Origin: a virus | Taxonomy: Duplodnaviria; Caudoviricetes | Virus record (IMG/VR): IMGVR_UViG_3300031999_000146 | Location: 1-30,258 of that record | DNA: 30,258 nt | Reading direction: 5' to 3' (one strand) | Part shown: one piece after another, positions 7,556 to 30,258 of the stretch | Layout of the letters: each line of letters begins with the position of its first letter | Position numbering within the stretch: the first letter of the stretch is position 1 | Program-made: the position numbers and the translations under genes | Notes under the pieces: generated by a model | Told to the model about the DNA's origin: nothing | The model's input: the letters and a program-made list of their open reading frames with translations, nothing else | Database searches by the model: none

Positions 7556-8878
7556 TTATTTAGTGTTATCTCTTTTAACTACTGAGATTCTTCCTACCTC
7601 TACAAGACCACAAGCTATACTCACTGCTGTTTCTAATGAAGCAATAAGTGATTCTGCTGTGTCATATACCTCTTTGAGATACTTCTTACCATTTTGTTCT
7701 AGTACCTCTCGTGGTTTTTGTAATGCCTTGTTTAAAATAGGTGATGACGTTTTAATCGTTTTATATGTCATACCTCCTCCTAGTATTATACCATTTGGAG
7801 ATGACAGTGCTATCTTCGTAGCTCCTACTGCGTCTTCTACTTTCTCTCTTACTGTGAACTGTTCATTCTTAGTTGGACTACCAACTTTAATTACTGCTGA
7901 TTGAGTGCCTTCAACAGTTTTCTTTCCAATAAGAGAAGTCTTTTCTTTAGTTGCTACTGCTGACTTAGCTAGTCCGAAGTGTTCCTTTGTAATTGGTCCA
8001 AGTTTAGGGTCGTGGATTGTACTATCAGTAAGCTCTGCTATCTTGTTCATAATCTCAAACTTCTCATCACCAAATCCTGCGTTGTTTACCAGTAGTGGAT
8101 TGAATACTCCATTAACTTTGTTCATAGCTATGATTGAGAGTACTTGGTCACTGAAGCTGTCTGCAAAGATAACGAACTCTCGTTTAGGTGACTTCATAAT
8201 CAACTCTAGTATCGGTATAAGTTGTTGTGGAGTTTGTAGTGCATCATTCACAATGATTATATATGGTTTATCCAATACTACTTTATCTCCTCTATTGGCT
8301 AGGTGTGTTGAGATATATCCTGCTGGCACTTCATACCCTGATGCTATCTCATAAGAGGTTGTCATATCCTCTGAATCCTCTATGTGTATGATTCCAGTTA
8401 TGCCTACCTTTGATACTACCTCTGATACTATCTTTGAAATGTCTTTGTTGTTGTATGCACTATAAGCCACCTTCTCAAGGTCACCTTTGCCTTTAATTTG
8501 TTTTGTCTTTTTAAGAATCTGTCCTTTAAAGTCTTCTAGTCCTTTACGAACTTCAAGTACATTGTCGTGTTCGTTTCCTTTAGCGAGCATTTCCTTTACC
8601 AGTGCAGACATAAGAATTGCTGAAGTAGTTGTTCCGTCTTGGATTCTTTCGTTTGTTTGTTTAGTTGTTTCCTTAATGTATTCAATGATTGCTTGTTCTG
8701 CATCATCTTCTAATTCAAAATGTTCTGAGCCAATCTTTCCATCATCTACTGCTTTGATTCCATTAGCCCCTATCAATATAGTCTTTCCTACTGGACCGTA
8801 TGTTGGTGTTATGAAGTCTAAATATTTGTCTATGGCTGATAATATTATTTCTTTTGGGTTGCTGTATATTATTTTCAT
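7556..8878 (-). CDS. groEL: Chaperonin GroEL-like, internally reduced (440 aa)
   Basis: TYGPVG, DDG, DGTTT, GYIS, AGFGD, AVIKVG, EKVEDAVGATK, GIILGGG motifs. Confidence 0.9.
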   Translation of the reverse strand: MKIIYSNPKEIILSAIDKYLDFITPTYGPVGKTILIGANGIKAVDDGKIGSEHFELEDDAEQAIIEYIKETTKQTNERIQDGTTTSAILMSALVKEMLAKGNEHDNVLEVRKGLEDFKGQILKKTKQIKGKGDLEKVAYSAYNNKDISKIVSEVVSKVGITGIIHIEDSEDMTTSYEIASGYEVPAGYISTHLANRGDKVVLDKPYIIIVNDALQTPQQLIPILELIMKSPKREFVIFADSFSDQVLSIIAMNKVNGVFNPLLVNNAGFGDEKFEIMNKIAELTDSTIHDPKLGPITKEHFGLAKSAVATKEKTSLIGKKTVEGTQSAVIKVGSPTKNEQFTVREKVEDAVGATKIALSSPNGIILGGGMTYKTIKTSSPILNKALQKPREVLEQNGKKYLKEVYDTAESLIASLETAVSIACGLVEVGRISVVKRDNTK

Positions 8879-12345: not shown

Positions 12346-12801
12346 TTAGTTGCTTGTAATTGCTAATGGTTCTCTTTTTGTGTCAAAGTATTTAACACAA
12401 TTTTCTTTTCTTATATATATTGCAAACAAATCCTGTCTGCCTATATCTTTATTTGTAAAGTTCCAAGAAATTTTACCTAAAGTATCTTTATAACCTGTCC
12501 TAACTTCAACTCTTTGTGTAATGCCATTTTTCATAGCTAGTAAATCACATGAACATGATGGTGATATTGCTCTAAATACAGCATATCCTTTTAACATTAG
12601 GTCAGCAGCACATACAAGTTCAGAAATTGCACCCATTGTACCAGTACTTATATTATTTAATCCTGTTCGACCAGTCTTTTCTGTATTGAACTTTGTCTTA
12701 CAAACAGGAGAACATAATCTTTTATGTGGTATTGTGGTATCAAATGTTTTATAACATTGTGCACACTCTTTTGTAACATTTTCTTTTTTTGTATATTTCA
12801 T
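12346..12801 (-). CDS. Zn-finger + PD-(D/E)XK endonuclease (intron-associated PDDEXK_5-like), probable homing endonuclease
   Basis: CAQC...CSPVC; G.ISE...L..KGY.VF...DL......RVEVRT; own promoter. Confidence 0.75.
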   Translation of the reverse strand: MKYTKKENVTKECAQCYKTFDTTIPHKRLCSPVCKTKFNTEKTGRTGLNNISTGTMGAISELVCAADLMLKGYAVFRAISPSCSCDLLAMKNGITQRVEVRTGYKDTLGKISWNFTNKDIGRQDLFAIYIRKENCVKYFDTKREPLAITSN

Positions 12802-14988: not shown

Positions 14989-15059
14989 TAAATGACCTCG
15001 CAGGTAGCTGTACGGATTGTCTGTAAACTTCGGTATAATTTTCGGTGTCGGTATATATA

Positions 15060-15257
15060 CTATTCTAACACAGAAACTGGCATGCTTATAGAGTTATCTC
15101 CCTTTCCAATTCCTTCATTTAATGTGTGTCTTAAGCAGTGTATGTGTCTTCGTATTTCTGATTGTTTTTCTGGGTCTTTTTCTGTGAGTAAATTTTCCTC
15201 GCATTTAGCTAGTGATATTCGCAAATAGTCTTTATAACATTTGCAAGGCTTTTCCAT
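15060..15257 (-). CDS. Hypothetical protein
   Basis: First ORF after the leftward promoter. Confidence 0.5.
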   Translation of the reverse strand: MEKPCKCYKDYLRISLAKCEENLLTEKDPEKQSEIRRHIHCLRHTLNEGIGKGDNSISMPVSVLE

Positions 15258-15286
15258 TTATATTTGAATTAACCTCATTACTTTTA

Positions 15287-15333
15287 ATTATAAAATACTA
15301 ATCAGGTAGTGTCTATAATTTGCCTGTGCATAA
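15287..15333 (-). promoter_or_regulatory. Leftward promoter with upstream DnaA-box-like site
   Basis: TTATGCACA (15333-15325), then TAGACA-17 nt-TATAAT. Confidence 0.65.
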
Positions 15334-15375
15334 CTTTTATAGTAATGTACTTTGCCTATGATAAAATACTTAGTA

Positions 15376-15657
15376 ATGGGATTATATAAACTAATCAACA
15401 AAGATACTTGCACCATTTGTGGTAAGAAACTTTTAGTTCCTTCTTGGAAGAATTGTGAAGATTGTGATTTTAATTCTTATCGAAATAAATATTTAAGAAA
15501 ACAAATAAAAATAGAAAAAGCGAACCTAGTAAGGTTACAATTTCAAAAACTTAAAAGAAAAAATATGAGAAGTGTTAACTCTTCTAACTTAGTAAAAGCA
15601 CAAATAATAGTATTTGATGATTACAGTGGCAAGGTGATAGGGTACAGAATGTTTTAA
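15376..15657 (+). CDS. Zn-ribbon basic protein, antisense to the main gene flow
   Basis: CTICG...CEDC; TGATAAAAT 8 nt before ATG. Confidence 0.6.
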   Translation: MGLYKLINKDTCTICGKKLLVPSWKNCEDCDFNSYRNKYLRKQIKIEKANLVRLQFQKLKRKNMRSVNSSNLVKAQIIVFDDYSGKVIGYRMF

Positions 15658-16391
15658 ATAGTCCAAACTCCAGTAAGAGGAAGTTTGTTTGCTTTTTGAT
15701 AGTCTGTCACTGCTTTTGCAGTAATCTCTCCGTAATAACCTGTGCAAGTTGGATATGTAAAGAAGCCTTTGTCTTTAAGCATTTGTTGCAGCTTTACCAC
15801 TTCATCACCTCTTGAACCTAATGTTAATTCCTTTGCATAAAACAAATTAGGCGAGACGCACCCGTTGTAGCCATTTTCATAATCCACCACTTCATAAAAT
15901 AGTTTTCCACTCTTTAAAAATCCTTCTGAGTTTCTGATATATTGTTTACCTGAAGTTCGTTTTTTAACTCTGATACATTTTCTTACTTGAAAGTGAAGGT
16001 GAGTACCTTTTCCTGTTGGTTTTTCTTCTGGTGTTACCAGGTTGCCTGAAACATAACAAGTCCCCCAGTTGCCTTCTGTTGCGATTGGTTCTCCTGCTTT
16101 GACTATTTGTCCTTCTGTAACAAAACTCTTGTCTACGTGACCATAAGACACCTCATAGGAGAAGTCTTTGTCATCTATCATCTGAAACACAGCACGATAC
16201 TTAGTTGTGTCTTTGTTTGTCATATTCATAAGGGAATACACAAGACCTGTGACGGTTGCATTGATAGTTTTCTTAAAGCCGATTGTGTAGTCTTGACCTG
16301 TATGAGCAAGTAACCCACTGTTTTTGTATGAGGGATTTTTATTTTCTCCAAATCCTTGTGTCATTATTCCCTGCGGTTTTTTTAAAATCAT
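15654..16391 (-). CDS. Endolysin: M23 peptidase + peptidoglycan-binding domain
   Basis: HTGQD (HxxxD), YGH, HLHF; LGSRGDEVVKLQ..L...G.YG..T..AV..YQ. Confidence 0.9.
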   Translation of the reverse strand: MILKKPQGIMTQGFGENKNPSYKNSGLLAHTGQDYTIGFKKTINATVTGLVYSLMNMTNKDTTKYRAVFQMIDDKDFSYEVSYGHVDKSFVTEGQIVKAGEPIATEGNWGTCYVSGNLVTPEEKPTGKGTHLHFQVRKCIRVKKRTSGKQYIRNSEGFLKSGKLFYEVVDYENGYNGCVSPNLFYAKELTLGSRGDEVVKLQQMLKDKGFFTYPTCTGYYGEITAKAVTDYQKANKLPLTGVWTI

Positions 16392-16392
16392 A

Positions 16393-16421
16393 TTGATTAA
16401 GGTGTGTCCTTATGTTAGTAT
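16393..16421 (+). promoter_or_regulatory. Promoter for the inverted endonuclease
   Basis: TTGATT-17 nt-TAGTAT (with TGn)-8 nt-ATG. Confidence 0.65.
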
Positions 16422-16429
16422 TAGTGTAT

Positions 16430-16951
16430 ATGGATATAATAACACGAAACTGTACATTTTGTAACAAAGAATTTACACCGAACACAAGAGTTCAAATAAA
16501 TTGCTCGATACAATGTACAAAAAACAAATATTACAAAAGAAAATGTATTGAGTTAGGGAAATCATCAATTTTTGTAAATGAAGAAGATTTTTACAAAACA
16601 GAAACAGGTATTGGATTTAAGTGGGAAAAATATGTAGCAGACAAATTAGGTGCAACACATTTAGAATTTAATCTAGACGGATTAGATATAGATTGGAACG
16701 GAAAACTTATTGATGTTAAATCAGCACACCTAAACAAAAGAAAAAACAAAAGGGGAAAACCTGTGGTGGGTAAACAATTAGGATACTGGAATTTTAAGGG
16801 TTGGGGTTTAAATGAACCGAGTTTTTTTGTATGTGTCTGCGTAAATGATGATGAAAGTGTTGAAAAAACACTGATAATACCCTCATCGCTTTATCCAAAA
16901 CAAGGAATCACTGTTGGTCAGAAATCTAAATATGATATTTATTTAATTTAA
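16430..16951 (+). CDS. Zn-finger + PD-(D/E)XK endonuclease, probable homing endonuclease
   Basis: CTFC...CSIQC; G...E.......D......IDVKS; inverted inside the lysis cassette. Confidence 0.75.
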   Translation: MDIITRNCTFCNKEFTPNTRVQINCSIQCTKNKYYKRKCIELGKSSIFVNEEDFYKTETGIGFKWEKYVADKLGATHLEFNLDGLDIDWNGKLIDVKSAHLNKRKNKRGKPVVGKQLGYWNFKGWGLNEPSFFVCVCVNDDESVEKTLIIPSSLYPKQGITVGQKSKYDIYLI

Positions 16952-17030
16952 GACCTGCACCTTTATAAGAAGGATTAGCGTTAGCTGCGAAAGGTTGAGT
17001 GTTAATTCCTTTTGGTTCTATGAGTTTCAT
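16947..17030 (-). pseudogene. Orphan 5' stub of the endolysin (MKLIEPKGINTQPFAANANPSYKGAGLK)
   Basis: 16/28 aa identical to the current endolysin N-terminus; ATGA-coupled to the upstream gene. Confidence 0.85.
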
Positions 17031-17350
17031 TTTGCACTTGTAATTATTAAACCTAGTAAAGAAGCAATAATAGCCCCAACGATAATTCTGTTAATCCAAG
17101 TAAGAAGTGAGTTTATTTTCTCCACATCTATCTTATCTGCTTTCTTGTCTACTTCTGTTTTGTCAGCCTTTGTGTCTATTCTAGCGTGTACCCCTTCAAT
17201 TCGTTTGTCCATTTGTTCTTGGAACATAACCATTCGTTCTTGGTGAAGTGTAATATTCTCTTTTAGAGTGTTAGCAATATCATCAACTCGTTCTTTGATG
17301 TAGGATATTTCTCCTTGCATTACTGCTATTTTTGTTTCTTCACTAGACAT
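17027..17350 (-). CDS. XhlA-like coiled-coil membrane protein (lysis)
   Basis: Coiled coil plus C-terminal TM, in the lysis cassette. Confidence 0.6.
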   Translation of the reverse strand: MSSEETKIAVMQGEISYIKERVDDIANTLKENITLHQERMVMFQEQMDKRIEGVHARIDTKADKTEVDKKADKIDVEKINSLLTWINRIIVGAIIASLLGLIITSAK

Positions 17351-17351
17351 G

Positions 17352-17564
17352 TTACTCTCCTGTGTTCATAAACTTAGTAATTTCATTAACTAATGCTCCA
17401 AGAGTAGTGAGAGTAAGAACATCTGCTAATAGTTTCCAATCCACTATATAAATACTACCTGCTGAGATAATGAATCCTGCTCCTGTTACCACAAACAAAC
17501 CTGCTGTTCTCCAAGCAAAGGATTTAAGTCTGTTAAGATAGATTTGTTTATTTTTCTTTGTCAT
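17352..17564 (-). CDS. Putative holin
   Basis: Small protein with two TM helices, near the endolysin. Confidence 0.6.
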   Translation of the reverse strand: MTKKNKQIYLNRLKSFAWRTAGLFVVTGAGFIISAGSIYIVDWKLLADVLTLTTLGALVNEITKFMNTGE

Positions 17565-17685
17565 TTTTAACATCTGGTAGTTCTGTTAATAGTTTTCGGA
17601 GGGCATCAAATTGAGATGCTGGAATGTTTGTTGCGTATACAACTTGTAATATTGCTTCTATTTGCTCTTTTGATATTTGTTTCAT
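17548..17685 (-). CDS. 45-aa ORF not in the track (MKQISKEQIEAILQVVY...)
   Basis: Fills the gap; TATAAT 7 nt before ATG. Confidence 0.6.
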   Translation of the reverse strand: MKQISKEQIEAILQVVYATNIPASQFDALRKLLTELPDVKNDKEK

Positions 17686-17698
17686 ACTTATAATTATA

Positions 17699-18253
17699 CT
17701 ATTTTTTTAAAAGGTTGGCACTTACTTCTTCCACAGTTCTAATTTTGTAGTATTCAGGGTCGATAGCCTTCTTAGCCTTTTTCTTGTCAAACTCCACATC
17801 TACAAATTCTGCGATAGCATCTATAGTTTCATCTATCTTTAAAAAGTAGTCATCATAAGGGATTTCTAGTAGTTCCATATCTGGTCTATTTTCTACAATG
17901 AATCGTAGGAATCTGTATTGCTTTTCTATTTGTTGCTTCTGCAATTCCATATTAGGTGGCATTTGCTTTTGATTAAAGGTTTCAATGCGTGAGAGTACGA
18001 TTTGTTCTGTATCTCGTACTGGCATAATCACTTTGTATTCTCCTGCTGGCAAGTCAAAGAGTTCTAGTGCATTAAGACATTTAAAAGACTTGCCTTCTGG
18101 TACTGTCTTAAAGTTATGAGTTTCAAATGAACCATAAGGATTGATTGCCTTGTTTATTTCAAGGTTATGTTCTGCTTTGATACCTCCTTTATCTAGTATC
18201 ATCATTGATAAACTTGTTCCTGTTCGTGGGTTTCCTGTAACTATTGTTTTCAT
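17699..18253 (-). CDS. Sulfotransferase-family protein
   Basis: IVTGNPRTGTS 5'-PSB loop, NPYGSFE, R......S 3'-PB motif, YDD...I.EF. Confidence 0.8.
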   Translation of the reverse strand: MKTIVTGNPRTGTSLSMMILDKGGIKAEHNLEINKAINPYGSFETHNFKTVPEGKSFKCLNALELFDLPAGEYKVIMPVRDTEQIVLSRIETFNQKQMPPNMELQKQQIEKQYRFLRFIVENRPDMELLEIPYDDYFLKIDETIDAIAEFVDVEFDKKKAKKAIDPEYYKIRTVEEVSANLLKK

Positions 18254-26927: not shown

Positions 26928-28040
26928 TTATGAATAAGATATTACTCTTGCAAAACCATTACCCCCAGTTCCACCAGCACCTGATACTTGGTCACCTCCT
27001 GCTGCACCTCCCCCACCACCTCCTGCAGCACGACCTCCAGCACGACCAGTACCTCCAGCAACGCCTGAACCAAATGCACTAGAACCACCACCTCCACCAC
27101 CAGTACCACCTATCATTTCTGTAGTATTAGAAGGTGTATTTCCTGCTGTCGCTGTATTTGCATTTCCTGCTCCTCCAGTTCCTCCAGCTAAACTGTACGG
27201 TGTTAACGCTCCTCCAGCTCCTCCAGCTTGTGCTACCCCTGTTGTTCCTCCACCACCTCCACCACCTGTGGGCATAATGTAGAAAGCACCACCAACAAGA
27301 CCATCTTCTGAGTTAATCCCTGCCCTTCCTCCAGCAACACCATTTATTATAAATCCAGTAGATACTGTTCCACCTGCTCCACCTCCACCGATTTGTCCAC
27401 CTGCTCCACCATTTCCTCCAATAGCACTAAGCCAAGTACCAAATGATGTTGTTCCTCCAGTAGAACCAGCTAACCCATCGGCTGCAGTACGTGTTGCACC
27501 ACCAGCACCACCAGTTCCAATAGTAACTGTTTCTGTACTAGCAAGATTTGATGCTAAATATATATATTTGCTGTATGTTCCTGCTCCACCACCACCTCCT
27601 CCAGCGGCATCATTTACAGATGACACACTTCTTCCTGAACCACCTCCCCCACCACCTCCAAATAATTCAACAACTACAAACTTAGCTCCATTTGGTTTTG
27701 TCCAAGTTCCGTTTGCTGAAAAAGTTTGAGTATTTGAACCTGTAAAACTATCATCTAAAACTCCACTTGCGTTCAACTTGATTCCTTTTCCGCTATCTGC
27801 CGCACCTGCACTTGTTGTTACATAAGAAGGTGGAAAGTCTGGTGAACCTCCCGCATCTATATAAGCCTTAACTGCCTTTTGAGAAGGGATTTTAGCGTCA
27901 CTGTTGGCTGCAAGTGTTGTGTCTGTATCTATTACAGAAGTTTCTATCTTAGATGAATTAAGATTAGCAAAGTTAGTATTCAAGTCTGCTCTTGAAGATG
28001 TGATTGTATCTGTTGATTGTATTGTTTGTATTGTTGCCAT
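26928..28040 (-). CDS. Glycine-rich fibre protein B
   Basis: GTWTKP.GAK.V.VEL.GGGGGG...GG.G.A.V.S glycine-rich domain. Confidence 0.75.
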   Translation of the reverse strand: MATIQTIQSTDTITSSRADLNTNFANLNSSKIETSVIDTDTTLAANSDAKIPSQKAVKAYIDAGGSPDFPPSYVTTSAGAADSGKGIKLNASGVLDDSFTGSNTQTFSANGTWTKPNGAKFVVVELFGGGGGGGSGRSVSSVNDAAGGGGGGAGTYSKYIYLASNLASTETVTIGTGGAGGATRTAADGLAGSTGGTTSFGTWLSAIGGNGGAGGQIGGGGAGGTVSTGFIINGVAGGRAGINSEDGLVGGAFYIMPTGGGGGGGTTGVAQAGGAGGALTPYSLAGGTGGAGNANTATAGNTPSNTTEMIGGTGGGGGGSSAFGSGVAGGTGRAGGRAAGGGGGGAAGGDQVSGAGGTGGNGFARVISYS

Positions 28041-28303: not shown

Positions 28304-29371
28304 TTAGTTATAATATTCAATTACAATACATCTTCCATTTGCTCCTGCTCCTGAGGTAGATGGAGCGTCTTTTGAACCACCACCTCCACCTGCAGGTACT
28401 GACCCTGCAATAGCTGTAGTTGCGTGTGCTGCTCCTCCTGCACCACCAAGTCTTGAAGTACCACCAGCACTTTGAGTTGTACCTGTTCCTCCTCCACCTC
28501 CACCCCCAAAAACAGAATTACCACCAGCAGCAGATGTTCCTACCCCATCTGTAATAGAACCAGCTCCTCCTGCACCACCATAGTAAGAATCACCACCAGC
28601 ACCAGCAACTGTTGCACTTGAAGCACCACCTCCCCCCCCACCAAATAAGGAAGTACCACCACTTGTTACTCCTCCAATAGGAGAACCACCAGTACCACCA
28701 GTAACTGTTCTATTTTGTCCAGCCGATACTGAACCTCCACCTCCCCCTCCACCCATAGAATCATTATAATGACCACCAGCACCCCCTCCAAAAGAAAGAA
28801 CTAATGCACCAAAAGATGAATTTCCACCTGCATTTCCTCCTGTACCACTTCCTGTGGTACTAGCACCCCCTGCTCCAATAGTAACTGTTTCTGTAGTACC
28901 TAATTGAGAAGGTGTTAAAAAAATTTCACTATATGCTCCTCCACCTCCACCTGAACCATATCCTGCACCACCTGAACCTCCTCCTCCCCATAGTTTTACA
29001 AATAAACCTGTCAAACCTGTTGGTTTAGTCCAAGTAGCAGGAGAATCTGAAAAGTTATATGTTCGTGTTACTGGGTCTTTTATAAAACTTCCATCAAGTT
29101 CACCACTTGCATTTAACTTAACTCCTTTACCACTATCCCCAGCTCCTGCTGAAGTTGTAACAAATCCTGCTGCAATTCCTGTTGAATCTGCATAAGCCTT
29201 AGTTGCCTTTTGTGTAGCTACTTTAGTATCTGAGTTTGCTGCAAGAGTTACATCAGTGTCCAATGCAGTAGTTTCAACCTTATCTGTATTAAGGTTTGAG
29301 AAGTTTGTATTGATTACACCTCTTGAATCTGATGGATAATCTGTTGATTGTATTGTTGTGATTGTAGACAT
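28304..29371 (-). CDS. Glycine-rich fibre protein A (paralog of B)
   Basis: Same architecture and a conserved ~100-aa N-terminus. Confidence 0.75.
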   Translation of the reverse strand: MSTITTIQSTDYPSDSRGVINTNFSNLNTDKVETTALDTDVTLAANSDTKVATQKATKAYADSTGIAAGFVTTSAGAGDSGKGVKLNASGELDGSFIKDPVTRTYNFSDSPATWTKPTGLTGLFVKLWGGGGSGGAGYGSGGGGGAYSEIFLTPSQLGTTETVTIGAGGASTTGSGTGGNAGGNSSFGALVLSFGGGAGGHYNDSMGGGGGGGSVSAGQNRTVTGGTGGSPIGGVTSGGTSLFGGGGGGASSATVAGAGGDSYYGGAGGAGSITDGVGTSAAGGNSVFGGGGGGGTGTTQSAGGTSRLGGAGGAAHATTAIAGSVPAGGGGGSKDAPSTSGAGANGRCIVIEYYN

Positions 29372-29372
29372 A

Positions 29373-30092
29373 TTATCTAAAGTTAATTCCTATTGGTCGT
29401 AATATTCTTTTTTCGTCATTGTTTCTATCTTCAAAGTACTCAATCAATTTTCTTTCCTCTTTCTCTAACTCAACTGATAAAGGTTGAGTGTTTGAAAGTC
29501 CAAGTGTGATTGCTCCGTCATAGGCTGCAGCAATAATAAATCCTCTATCAAGTAATTGAGAGAATCCTGTTGTCTTTGTAGTATCTGTTGCTGCAAAAGA
29601 CGGAGAAGCTCTTTGAAAGAAGAATCTAAGTCCTGAAGCAACTGTTGCATCTGGTTTAGCGTCTAGTCTTATGATGTTGTCTGCAATCTTGTCGTATGAA
29701 GTAATAACACCTCTTGCTGTACCAAAGTATGCTGAATCAATACTAGGGTCGTTTCTATCTATTTGAGTTAGTGGTACATAAGAGCCATTTCTGAGGACTG
29801 AGATACCTGTAAGAGTGATGATTTGGTTTCCGTCTTCATCTGAAAGGAAAGAATAGTCAGTTTGGTCTTGATTTAAATTTGTAGTTCCTTCTGGGAGCTT
29901 TGTTTGGTTTGTGTTGTCCCATTGGAAGCGTTTGTCTGCTCCTATAGCGTATGCTGTAAGTCTATCAAGCCAGTTGTTACATGAGTTCACTATCTTTGCT
30001 GTTGTCCATTGTGTTGAATCTACACGCATGAATGAGCGTACTTGTTGTACGATTCCGAGGTTTGTTACTGTATCTGAAAATGGTGTTGACAT
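29373..30092 (-). CDS. Head-tail adaptor protein
   Basis: Position after capsid genes; start at MSTPFSD (30092), confirmed by the other allele. Confidence 0.65.
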   Translation of the reverse strand: MSTPFSDTVTNLGIVQQVRSFMRVDSTQWTTAKIVNSCNNWLDRLTAYAIGADKRFQWDNTNQTKLPEGTTNLNQDQTDYSFLSDEDGNQIITLTGISVLRNGSYVPLTQIDRNDPSIDSAYFGTARGVITSYDKIADNIIRLDAKPDATVASGLRFFFQRASPSFAATDTTKTTGFSQLLDRGFIIAAAYDGAITLGLSNTQPLSVELEKEERKLIEYFEDRNNDEKRILRPIGINFR

Positions 30093-30131
30093 AATATATA
30101 AAATTGTTAATAAGCGTACTCTCCTAAATGT
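30087..30131. other. Empty (endonuclease-free) allele corresponding to 100-600
   Basis: 45 bp between the same two flanks that enclose 501 bp at the left end. Confidence 0.92.
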
Positions 30132-30258
30132 TTCACGACTATTGTTGGGTCTATCCACGTCTTGTACCCTGCATCTCTCGCCACGTTACTAAACCAAGCG
30201 TCCTCTCCCATCGCAAGTGCTCCTTGTGAATCTCTACCGAAGTTGAACCAAGGGTTCT
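30107..30258 (-). CDS. 3' end of glycosyltransferase, empty-allele version ending KHLGEYAY*
   Basis: Same frame and sequence as 601-727, different last codons. Confidence 0.88.
   Translation of the reverse strand, partial: NPWFNFGRDSQGALAMGEDAWFSNVARDAGYKTWIDPTIVVKHLGEYAY

Follow-up and report, generated by a model that had tools for sequence, protein, structure and literature searches.

Why should a phage carry two beginnings of the same endolysin gene, with an inverted nuclease gene lying between them? This question is raised by the 30,258-nucleotide stretch of DNA analysed here (hereafter, the window), a near-complete phage record (98%), in which a nuclease gene is placed between a full-length endolysin gene and an extra fragment of the endolysin start. 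The same layout is repeated in a second locus, L013. Sequence comparisons induce us to consider it probable that this cassette homes without splicing, exchanging the endolysin gene's 5' end for another, with predicted cleavage at or near the Gly-His codons of unoccupied lysin genes.

The locus opens with a holin-like gene of 107 aa (17027..17350, minus strand, from the gene calls), matching PHROG 1193 (E 1.6e-8), the holin PHROG 689 (E 1e-3) and, weakly and under the cut-off, Pfam XhlA (E 1e-4). The initial annotation had reported an ORF at 17030 coupled by ATGA to this upstream lysis gene, and the stop of 17350..17027 indeed overlaps the start codon of that ORF (17030..16926, minus strand, 34 aa). 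Its first 28 codons (16947..17030, minus strand; hereafter, the stub) resemble the endolysin start and likely represent a displaced original endolysin 5' end; the frame continues for six further codons into the antisense strand of the nuclease gene and stops at 16926. The claim that it runs into the stop of an inverted nuclease gene also held, as the nuclease stop codon (16949-16951) overlaps stub codons 27-28 (Leu27-Lys28). The nuclease gene itself lies on the plus strand at 16430..16951 (173 aa; open from 16412 as a 179-codon ORF). A promoter-like sequence for it (16393..16421, plus strand), composed of TTGATT, 17 bases containing TGTCC, and TAGTAT, abuts the start codon of the complete endolysin gene on the opposite strand (15654..16391, minus strand, 245 aa).

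Elsewhere in the window, a sulfotransferase-like gene (17699-18253, minus strand; Pfam Sulfotransfer_3, E 4e-6) lies between the tail and lysis genes. Two neighbouring glycine-rich tail-like genes (26928-28040 and 28304-29371, minus strand) are paralogues, 54% identical over 137 aa. A Cpn60/TCP-1 chaperonin gene (7556-8878, minus strand, E 3e-19) is found near the gene of the terminase large subunit in this 30-kb phage.

Could such an arrangement have been produced by assembly? Contigs of a second study span both junctions (16191-16654 and 16799-17211) with zero differences, and we therefore reject an assembly artefact. In two DNA runs, no contig without the nuclease, i.e., an empty allele, was found; contigs drop rare variants, so the lack of a nuclease-skipping contig is not evidence of absence. 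At the ends of the window, there are two near-exact repeats (1-99 with 29988-30086, and 598-727 with 30129-30258), the order of which is unlike that of simple terminal repeats. They reflect either the overlap of a circular molecule, with a segment that varies, or an oddity of assembly.

The endolysin is complete without the stub, its frame and catalytic residues being intact. It matches Peptidase_M23 (PF01551, residues 30-138, E 6e-10) and a peptidoglycan-binding domain (PF01471, E 3e-12). H30, D34, H131 and H133, forming the HxxxD and HxH motifs, are all in place and occupy invariant columns among homologues, and the structural model (pLDDT 93.8) adopts a LytM-type fold. Judging from the motifs and the modelled fold, the product of 16391..15654 is predicted to be an M23 peptidase endolysin with a wall-binding domain. 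At its other end, a second inverted ORF (15352-15657, plus strand) of approximately 100 aa with four cysteines overlaps the endolysin stop; it had no Pfam or PHROG match, and the Atlas returned only unnamed viral clusters at 0.90. The lysins of the window, P0022 and P0023 end some 10-25 residues before most relatives, so this ORF may have clipped the endolysin 3' end.

The stub aligns with the endolysin start at 16391 without gaps, with 16 identities in 27 residues. The alignment scores 78, and none of 5000 shuffles scored above 50; the initial annotation had counted 16/28. As that annotation also stated, the break falls just before the catalytic HxxxD motif, precisely two codons ahead of His30. 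At the DNA level, the stub and the working start (16308..16391, minus strand, codons 1-28) share 45/84 bases (54%), and 11 of 15 synonymous codons differ, which is near saturation.

Which of the two starts is the old one? The nearest endolysin relative, P0022, is 85% identical, has the same length of 245 aa and continues with Gly-His after its start. Out of 28 residues, P0022 shares 24 with the stub vs. 19 with the working start; the values are 23 vs. 16 for P0023 and 24 vs. 18 for P0027, all three being compared at the protein level and assumed to be unoccupied. The three nearest relatives with this kind of start thus match the stub better, which makes it the likely original start. Among 16 homologues aligned without gaps, 14 favoured the stub at the 12 differing positions, one favoured the working start and one was a tie. 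Such protein-level likeness is what had been foreseen if relatives began as the stub does, and it suggests that the stub is likely a recently stranded native endolysin start.

As for the working start, the initial annotation had taken it for a recoded duplicate. This view is not borne out: the DNA of the two copies is only 54% identical, so that the working start appears to be of foreign origin, as if it were the 5' end of a more distant homologue, and not a fresh duplicate. A search for a close donor found none. We also rejected recent duplication followed by decay, since of the two copies the stub is the better conserved, and the synonymous sites are close to saturation. Duplication with decay would be expected to leave the functional copy nearer to relatives and the non-functional stub farther from them, the opposite of what is seen.

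Identity to P0022 does not return at the break; it resumes only near codon 64. Mismatches between the two lysins amount to 21/63 in codons 1-63 and 15/182 thereafter, i.e., 67% identity before codon 64 and 92% after it, with a change point at codon 63 that none of 1000 permutations equalled in strength. Residues 1-28 are 68% identical and the core 91% (111/122), while in 31 control pairs the corresponding conservation was 75% and 77%. Codons 29-63 (16203..16307, minus strand) match P0022 in 23/35 positions and were possibly transferred together with the cassette. We did not accept them as carried by the element: the region is somewhat variable in the 31 pairs (71%, vs. 77% for the core), and P0022 itself is divergent there.

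These figures bear on a rival explanation, according to which the mobile unit comprises the nuclease and the whole lysin gene, transferred by mosaic recombination or after a cut elsewhere, the stub being a chance remnant. An exchange inside the gene fits the step at codon 64 better than a swap of the entire gene does, and the contrast with the control pairs points the same way. We return to this explanation below, when the other loci are considered.

Another way to read a short gene start, an insert and a gene body is as an unrecognised intron, the stub being exon 1 spliced to the body. Phage genes are indeed often split by nuclease-carrying introns whose short first exons are often missed, according to a passage in PMC10448857. 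At this locus, neither Rfam nor RNA folding revealed a group I or group II ribozyme core: there was no Rfam intron match with E up to 5 over 15000-18000, and the sense strand folded no better than shuffles (z -1.27). The 555 bases from the stub to the new start are nearly all nuclease gene and promoter-like sequence, leaving no room for a ribozyme. Moreover, the downstream gene lacks no part even when the stub is disregarded, and several relatives are nearly stubless. By sequence, splicing at this locus appears unlikely, and we give the intron explanation next to no credence.

What kind of enzyme sits between the two starts? The initial annotation called it a PD-(D/E)XK nuclease; the predicted fold backs this label, which found no echo in Pfam, where the protein matched no family and hence no LAGLIDADG or GIY-YIG domain either. 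The model (pLDDT 86.7) shows an N-terminal four-cysteine region and a PD-(D/E)XK-fold domain. VIA-align placed NhoI (Z 11.5), I-Ssp6803I (Z 11.1; rmsd 2.3 over 103 residues, Foldseek E 8e-3) and Eco15I (Z 9.9) at the top, the next match scoring 7.7; DpnI appeared further down. A search among sequences of solved structures gave no match to the nuclease. E72, D92, D101 and K103 (numbered from 16412) are invariant in 20/20 close relatives, and D92 and K103 in all 36 sequences; by motif, these four are the putative catalytic residues. With a modelled alpha/beta core and conserved acidic and lysine residues, the protein can be placed, as a prediction, in the PD-(D/E)XK superfamily.

NhoI and I-Ssp6803I are tied in fold score, so the fold alone does not show homing. 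Taking into account that NhoI, a methylation-directed restriction enzyme, and Eco15I are among the top matches, with DpnI lower, one may suppose that the protein is a restriction-like or modification-dependent weapon of the phage against host or rival DNA, for which the place beside the lysin is merely a tolerated landing site. Such an explanation seems to us highly improbable, as it accounts neither for the back-to-back position (10/14 loci, see below) nor for the stubs and the changed junction residue; the absence of the family from all four other lysin loci examined also speaks against it. A small PD-(D/E)XK nuclease with a similar cysteine-rich start is encoded elsewhere in the window (12346-12801, minus strand; Pfam PDDEXK_5, E 1e-5), just upstream of an ERF recombination gene. 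A six-frame self-comparison revealed no duplicated gene end adjoining it.

The nuclease start is probably 16430, because 16412 falls inside the promoter-like sequence. The promoter pattern, derived from the nuclease loci themselves, has one match in the window and lies at most 60 bases from the nuclease start in 9/14 loci (L007, a locus of the same type as L008, was left out of the promoter, stub and Gly counts). The sequence at 16393-16421 is below the threshold of a generic promoter scan, and generic promoter and terminator matches in the window are at chance level (13 vs. 10.1 expected). Scanning viral contigs with the pattern gave 20 loci, none of which had the nuclease or a lysin; the pattern is not a usable marker among viral contigs. 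As to translation, a Shine-Dalgarno-like motif was found for only 4/36 genes of the window, so a new endolysin start would likely need none. Several genes have TATAAT a few bases before ATG, which, together with the rarity of such motifs, suggests leaderless messages and a host not reliant on Shine-Dalgarno pairing.

The family to which the nuclease belongs comprises, with E up to 1e-10, at least 73 clusters formed at 50% identity. A metagenome scan recovered 15 nuclease loci, one of them being the window. Among the other 14, an M23 lysin gene stands back-to-back with the nuclease in 10, L009 being counted on the basis of its motif and a weak profile match. L012, L015 and L018 carry in the lysin position another gene, not recognisably M23, and L020 is a distant locus with a different context. 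Between loci, the nucleases are 29-67% identical (mostly 39-67%) and the lysins approximately 20-40%, except for the pair L010/L011 (95% and 84%, respectively). A tree of 12 nucleases had good support for one of nine inner branches, so we draw no order of events from it.

In 10/11 loci, against a background of 31%, the stop of the upstream gene is coupled to a start codon, and in 7/11, against 8%, the two form an ATGA overlap; L010 and L019, which lie at contig ends, and the distant L020 with its other context were left out of this count. The coupled ATG remains in these 10 loci even though the upstream gene now faces the end of the nuclease gene. The stubs that follow vary in length from none to about 30 codons. 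Five stubs of at least 8 codons in other loci were tested against their own downstream gene, and only that of L013 was clearly significant (p 3e-4). Marginal values were obtained for L008 (p 0.04) and for L018 (p 0.02; the gene compared there is not recognisably M23), and the stubs of L011 and L012 were not significant. In five further loci, stubs have at most 3 codons outside the nuclease gene or are absent, so one fixed insertion point does not hold family-wide. The short stubs of L012 (2671-2600) and L018 (771-703), both on the minus strand, are alike and end in a Gln-containing motif resembling M23 starts. Replacement of the whole lysin is possible in these two loci, whose stubs are without statistical support.

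Loci free of the nuclease were found, with lysin identities of 32-50% and none closer. Viral contigs scanned with the single lysin, the single nuclease or the nuclease alignment yielded no relatives, searching genomes with the lysin alignment yielded a single locus, weak and uninformative, and no nuclease match was found among 50,697 GenBank phages.

The second locus, L013, bears on the position of the break. Its nuclease is approximately 47-49% identical to that of the window, while the lysins are similar only locally (33%). Its stub of about 30 codons resembles the start of its own lysin and, in four relatives, is matched better than the working start (18 vs. 16, 20 vs. 14, 19 vs. 14 and 17 vs. 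8 identities). This stub breaks off right ahead of the Gly-His present in three of these relatives, at the same position as in the window. The fourth relative, P0239, has a start of the same type as the working copy of L013, which counts against our main reading.

At the position equivalent to this junction, the window lysin has Ala29-His30 (16302..16307, minus strand) and that of L013 has Pro before the catalytic His. Gly precedes this His in 53/56 homologues and Ala in 0/56 (three of 59 homologues without a detectable motif were left out), so that Ala in place of a nearly invariant Gly is a candidate resistance change. Gly is present in 4/4 nuclease-free loci vs. 2/9 independent occupied loci, with L010 and L011 counted once, in a comparison that mixes M23 subfamilies, whose ancestry could account for the difference. 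The exceptions, in which Gly-His is kept beside the nuclease, are L008, L010 and L011. On the whole, the shared junction and the loss of Gly fit a target site at the Gly-His codons, with resistant replacements.

Considering all the loci together, we can come back to the transfer of nuclease and whole lysin as one unit. The unrecognisable genes behind the nucleases of L012, L015 and L018, as well as the variable stub lengths, are what such transfers would produce. Yet the break falls at one and the same codon in two loci that are distant from each other, in addition to the internal step in the window lysin, and we judge this explanation unlikely for the window, although it deserves more credit than the phage weapon or the intron.

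Hence, we prefer the replacement of the endolysin 5' end by a homing element, which might proceed as follows. During co-infection, the nuclease would cut the lysin gene of the other phage at or near the Gly-His codons of its catalytic motif. The gene-body side of the break would be repaired on the donor lysin downstream of the new start, and the other side either on the donor stub or by joining to the nuclease 3' end through short homology, which would explain why stub lengths differ across the family. The element would thus be copied in, bringing with it a 5' end that is likely foreign and resistant to cutting. The old start of the recipient would be left stranded behind the holin-like gene, and the lysin would be translated from the new start with no splicing.

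It is tempting to go further and to suppose that this PD-(D/E)XK homing family as a whole targets the Gly-His codons of M23 genes, re-heads lysins that are only 20-40% alike, drives the loss of Gly as an escape and sometimes swaps in a whole unrelated lysin, being the counterpart in phages of the arms race of WHO elements (see below) and reshuffling lysis genes. We put forward this broader scenario tentatively, and would at present sooner doubt it than rely on it.

It is usually held, as a passage in PMC3943268 states, that homing nucleases are able to enter conserved sites of essential phage genes by virtue of splicing. The window locus and L013 point to another route besides splicing in phages, with an enzyme fold, an orientation and a gene end different from those of yeast and mitochondrial systems. 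Such an element would give rise to chimeric endolysins and to misleading phylogenetic signal where genes begin. In addition, a previously uncharacterised nuclease family now has a candidate target, as well as an allele that is a candidate for resistance.

Finally, we would like to compare the cassette with known systems. Free-standing homing endonucleases known from phages lie in the space between genes or divide a gene into two parts, both of them expressed: SegF of T4 reportedly performs intronless homing, and mobE of Aeh1 is said to split nrdA into a gene in pieces. None of these is known to come with a stranded gene start and a substitute for it. Like these enzymes, the nuclease studied here is apparently intron-free and lies beside or within an essential phage gene. 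The bacterial PD-(D/E)XK homing endonuclease I-Ssp6803I (PDB 2ost) is encoded in an intron. It shares the fold of the window protein, differing in sequence (12-19% identity), and the alignment between them leaves out the four-cysteine N-terminus of the window protein. In ICP1 too, nucleases adjoin essential genes, as described in a passage of PMC10448857. Our literature search, covering few subscription papers and no supplements, found no description of a stub-and-replacement layout in phages.

The closest parallels come from eukaryotes. In the WHO elements of Torulaspora and Lachancea yeasts, the 3' end of FBA1 is replaced without splicing and the old end is kept as a fragment (PMC7282813; bioRxiv 10.64898/2026.08.13.744650). 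According to these sources, WHO elements, like the cassette, combine an endonuclease gene with a replacement gene end; they do so without splicing, as the cassette probably does. In WHO elements, the fragment of the old end starts at the cut site and resistance comes from the sequence of the replacement, two features that we predict for the cassette. WHO elements, as described there, act on the gene's 3' half through an HO-related LAGLIDADG enzyme, in diploid nuclei and in clusters, whereas the window has a replaced 5' end, an inverted enzyme of the PD-(D/E)XK fold, a phage endolysin gene and one copy. Cleavage is demonstrated for WHO and predicted for the window nuclease. A term search of the accessible text of the two WHO papers returned no word beginning with "phage".

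Mobile ORFs (mORFs) form gene hybrids in fungal mitochondria, as in atp6 of Allomyces macrogynus and in atp6, atp9, cox2 and nad3 of Glomus, according to PMC3630166. As is likely in the window, they bring a foreign gene end, and the displaced native end is nearer to close relatives than the working end is; unlike the cassette, they concern C-terminal ends, carry LAGLIDADG or GIY-YIG enzymes, and are co-oriented, co-transcribed and organellar (PMC3630166). The window is a virus record, and its nuclease has no Pfam domain of either type. A passage in PMC7487136 reports that the atp9 N-terminus was duplicated together with free GIY-YIG genes, and 5' cases may, given this passage, exist in mitochondria as well.

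Gene-end replacement without splicing is thus a principle already in print, for the WHO elements of yeasts and the mORFs of fungal mitochondria and chiefly with respect to 3' ends, which limits the surprise of the locus. What the locus adds is that a phage is concerned, that the gene end in question is the 5' one, that the PD-(D/E)XK enzyme is inverted and has a promoter-like sequence of its own, and that there is a candidate target at the M23 catalytic motif. Overall, we might conclude that the window element most likely works as WHO elements and mORFs do while being a member of neither family.
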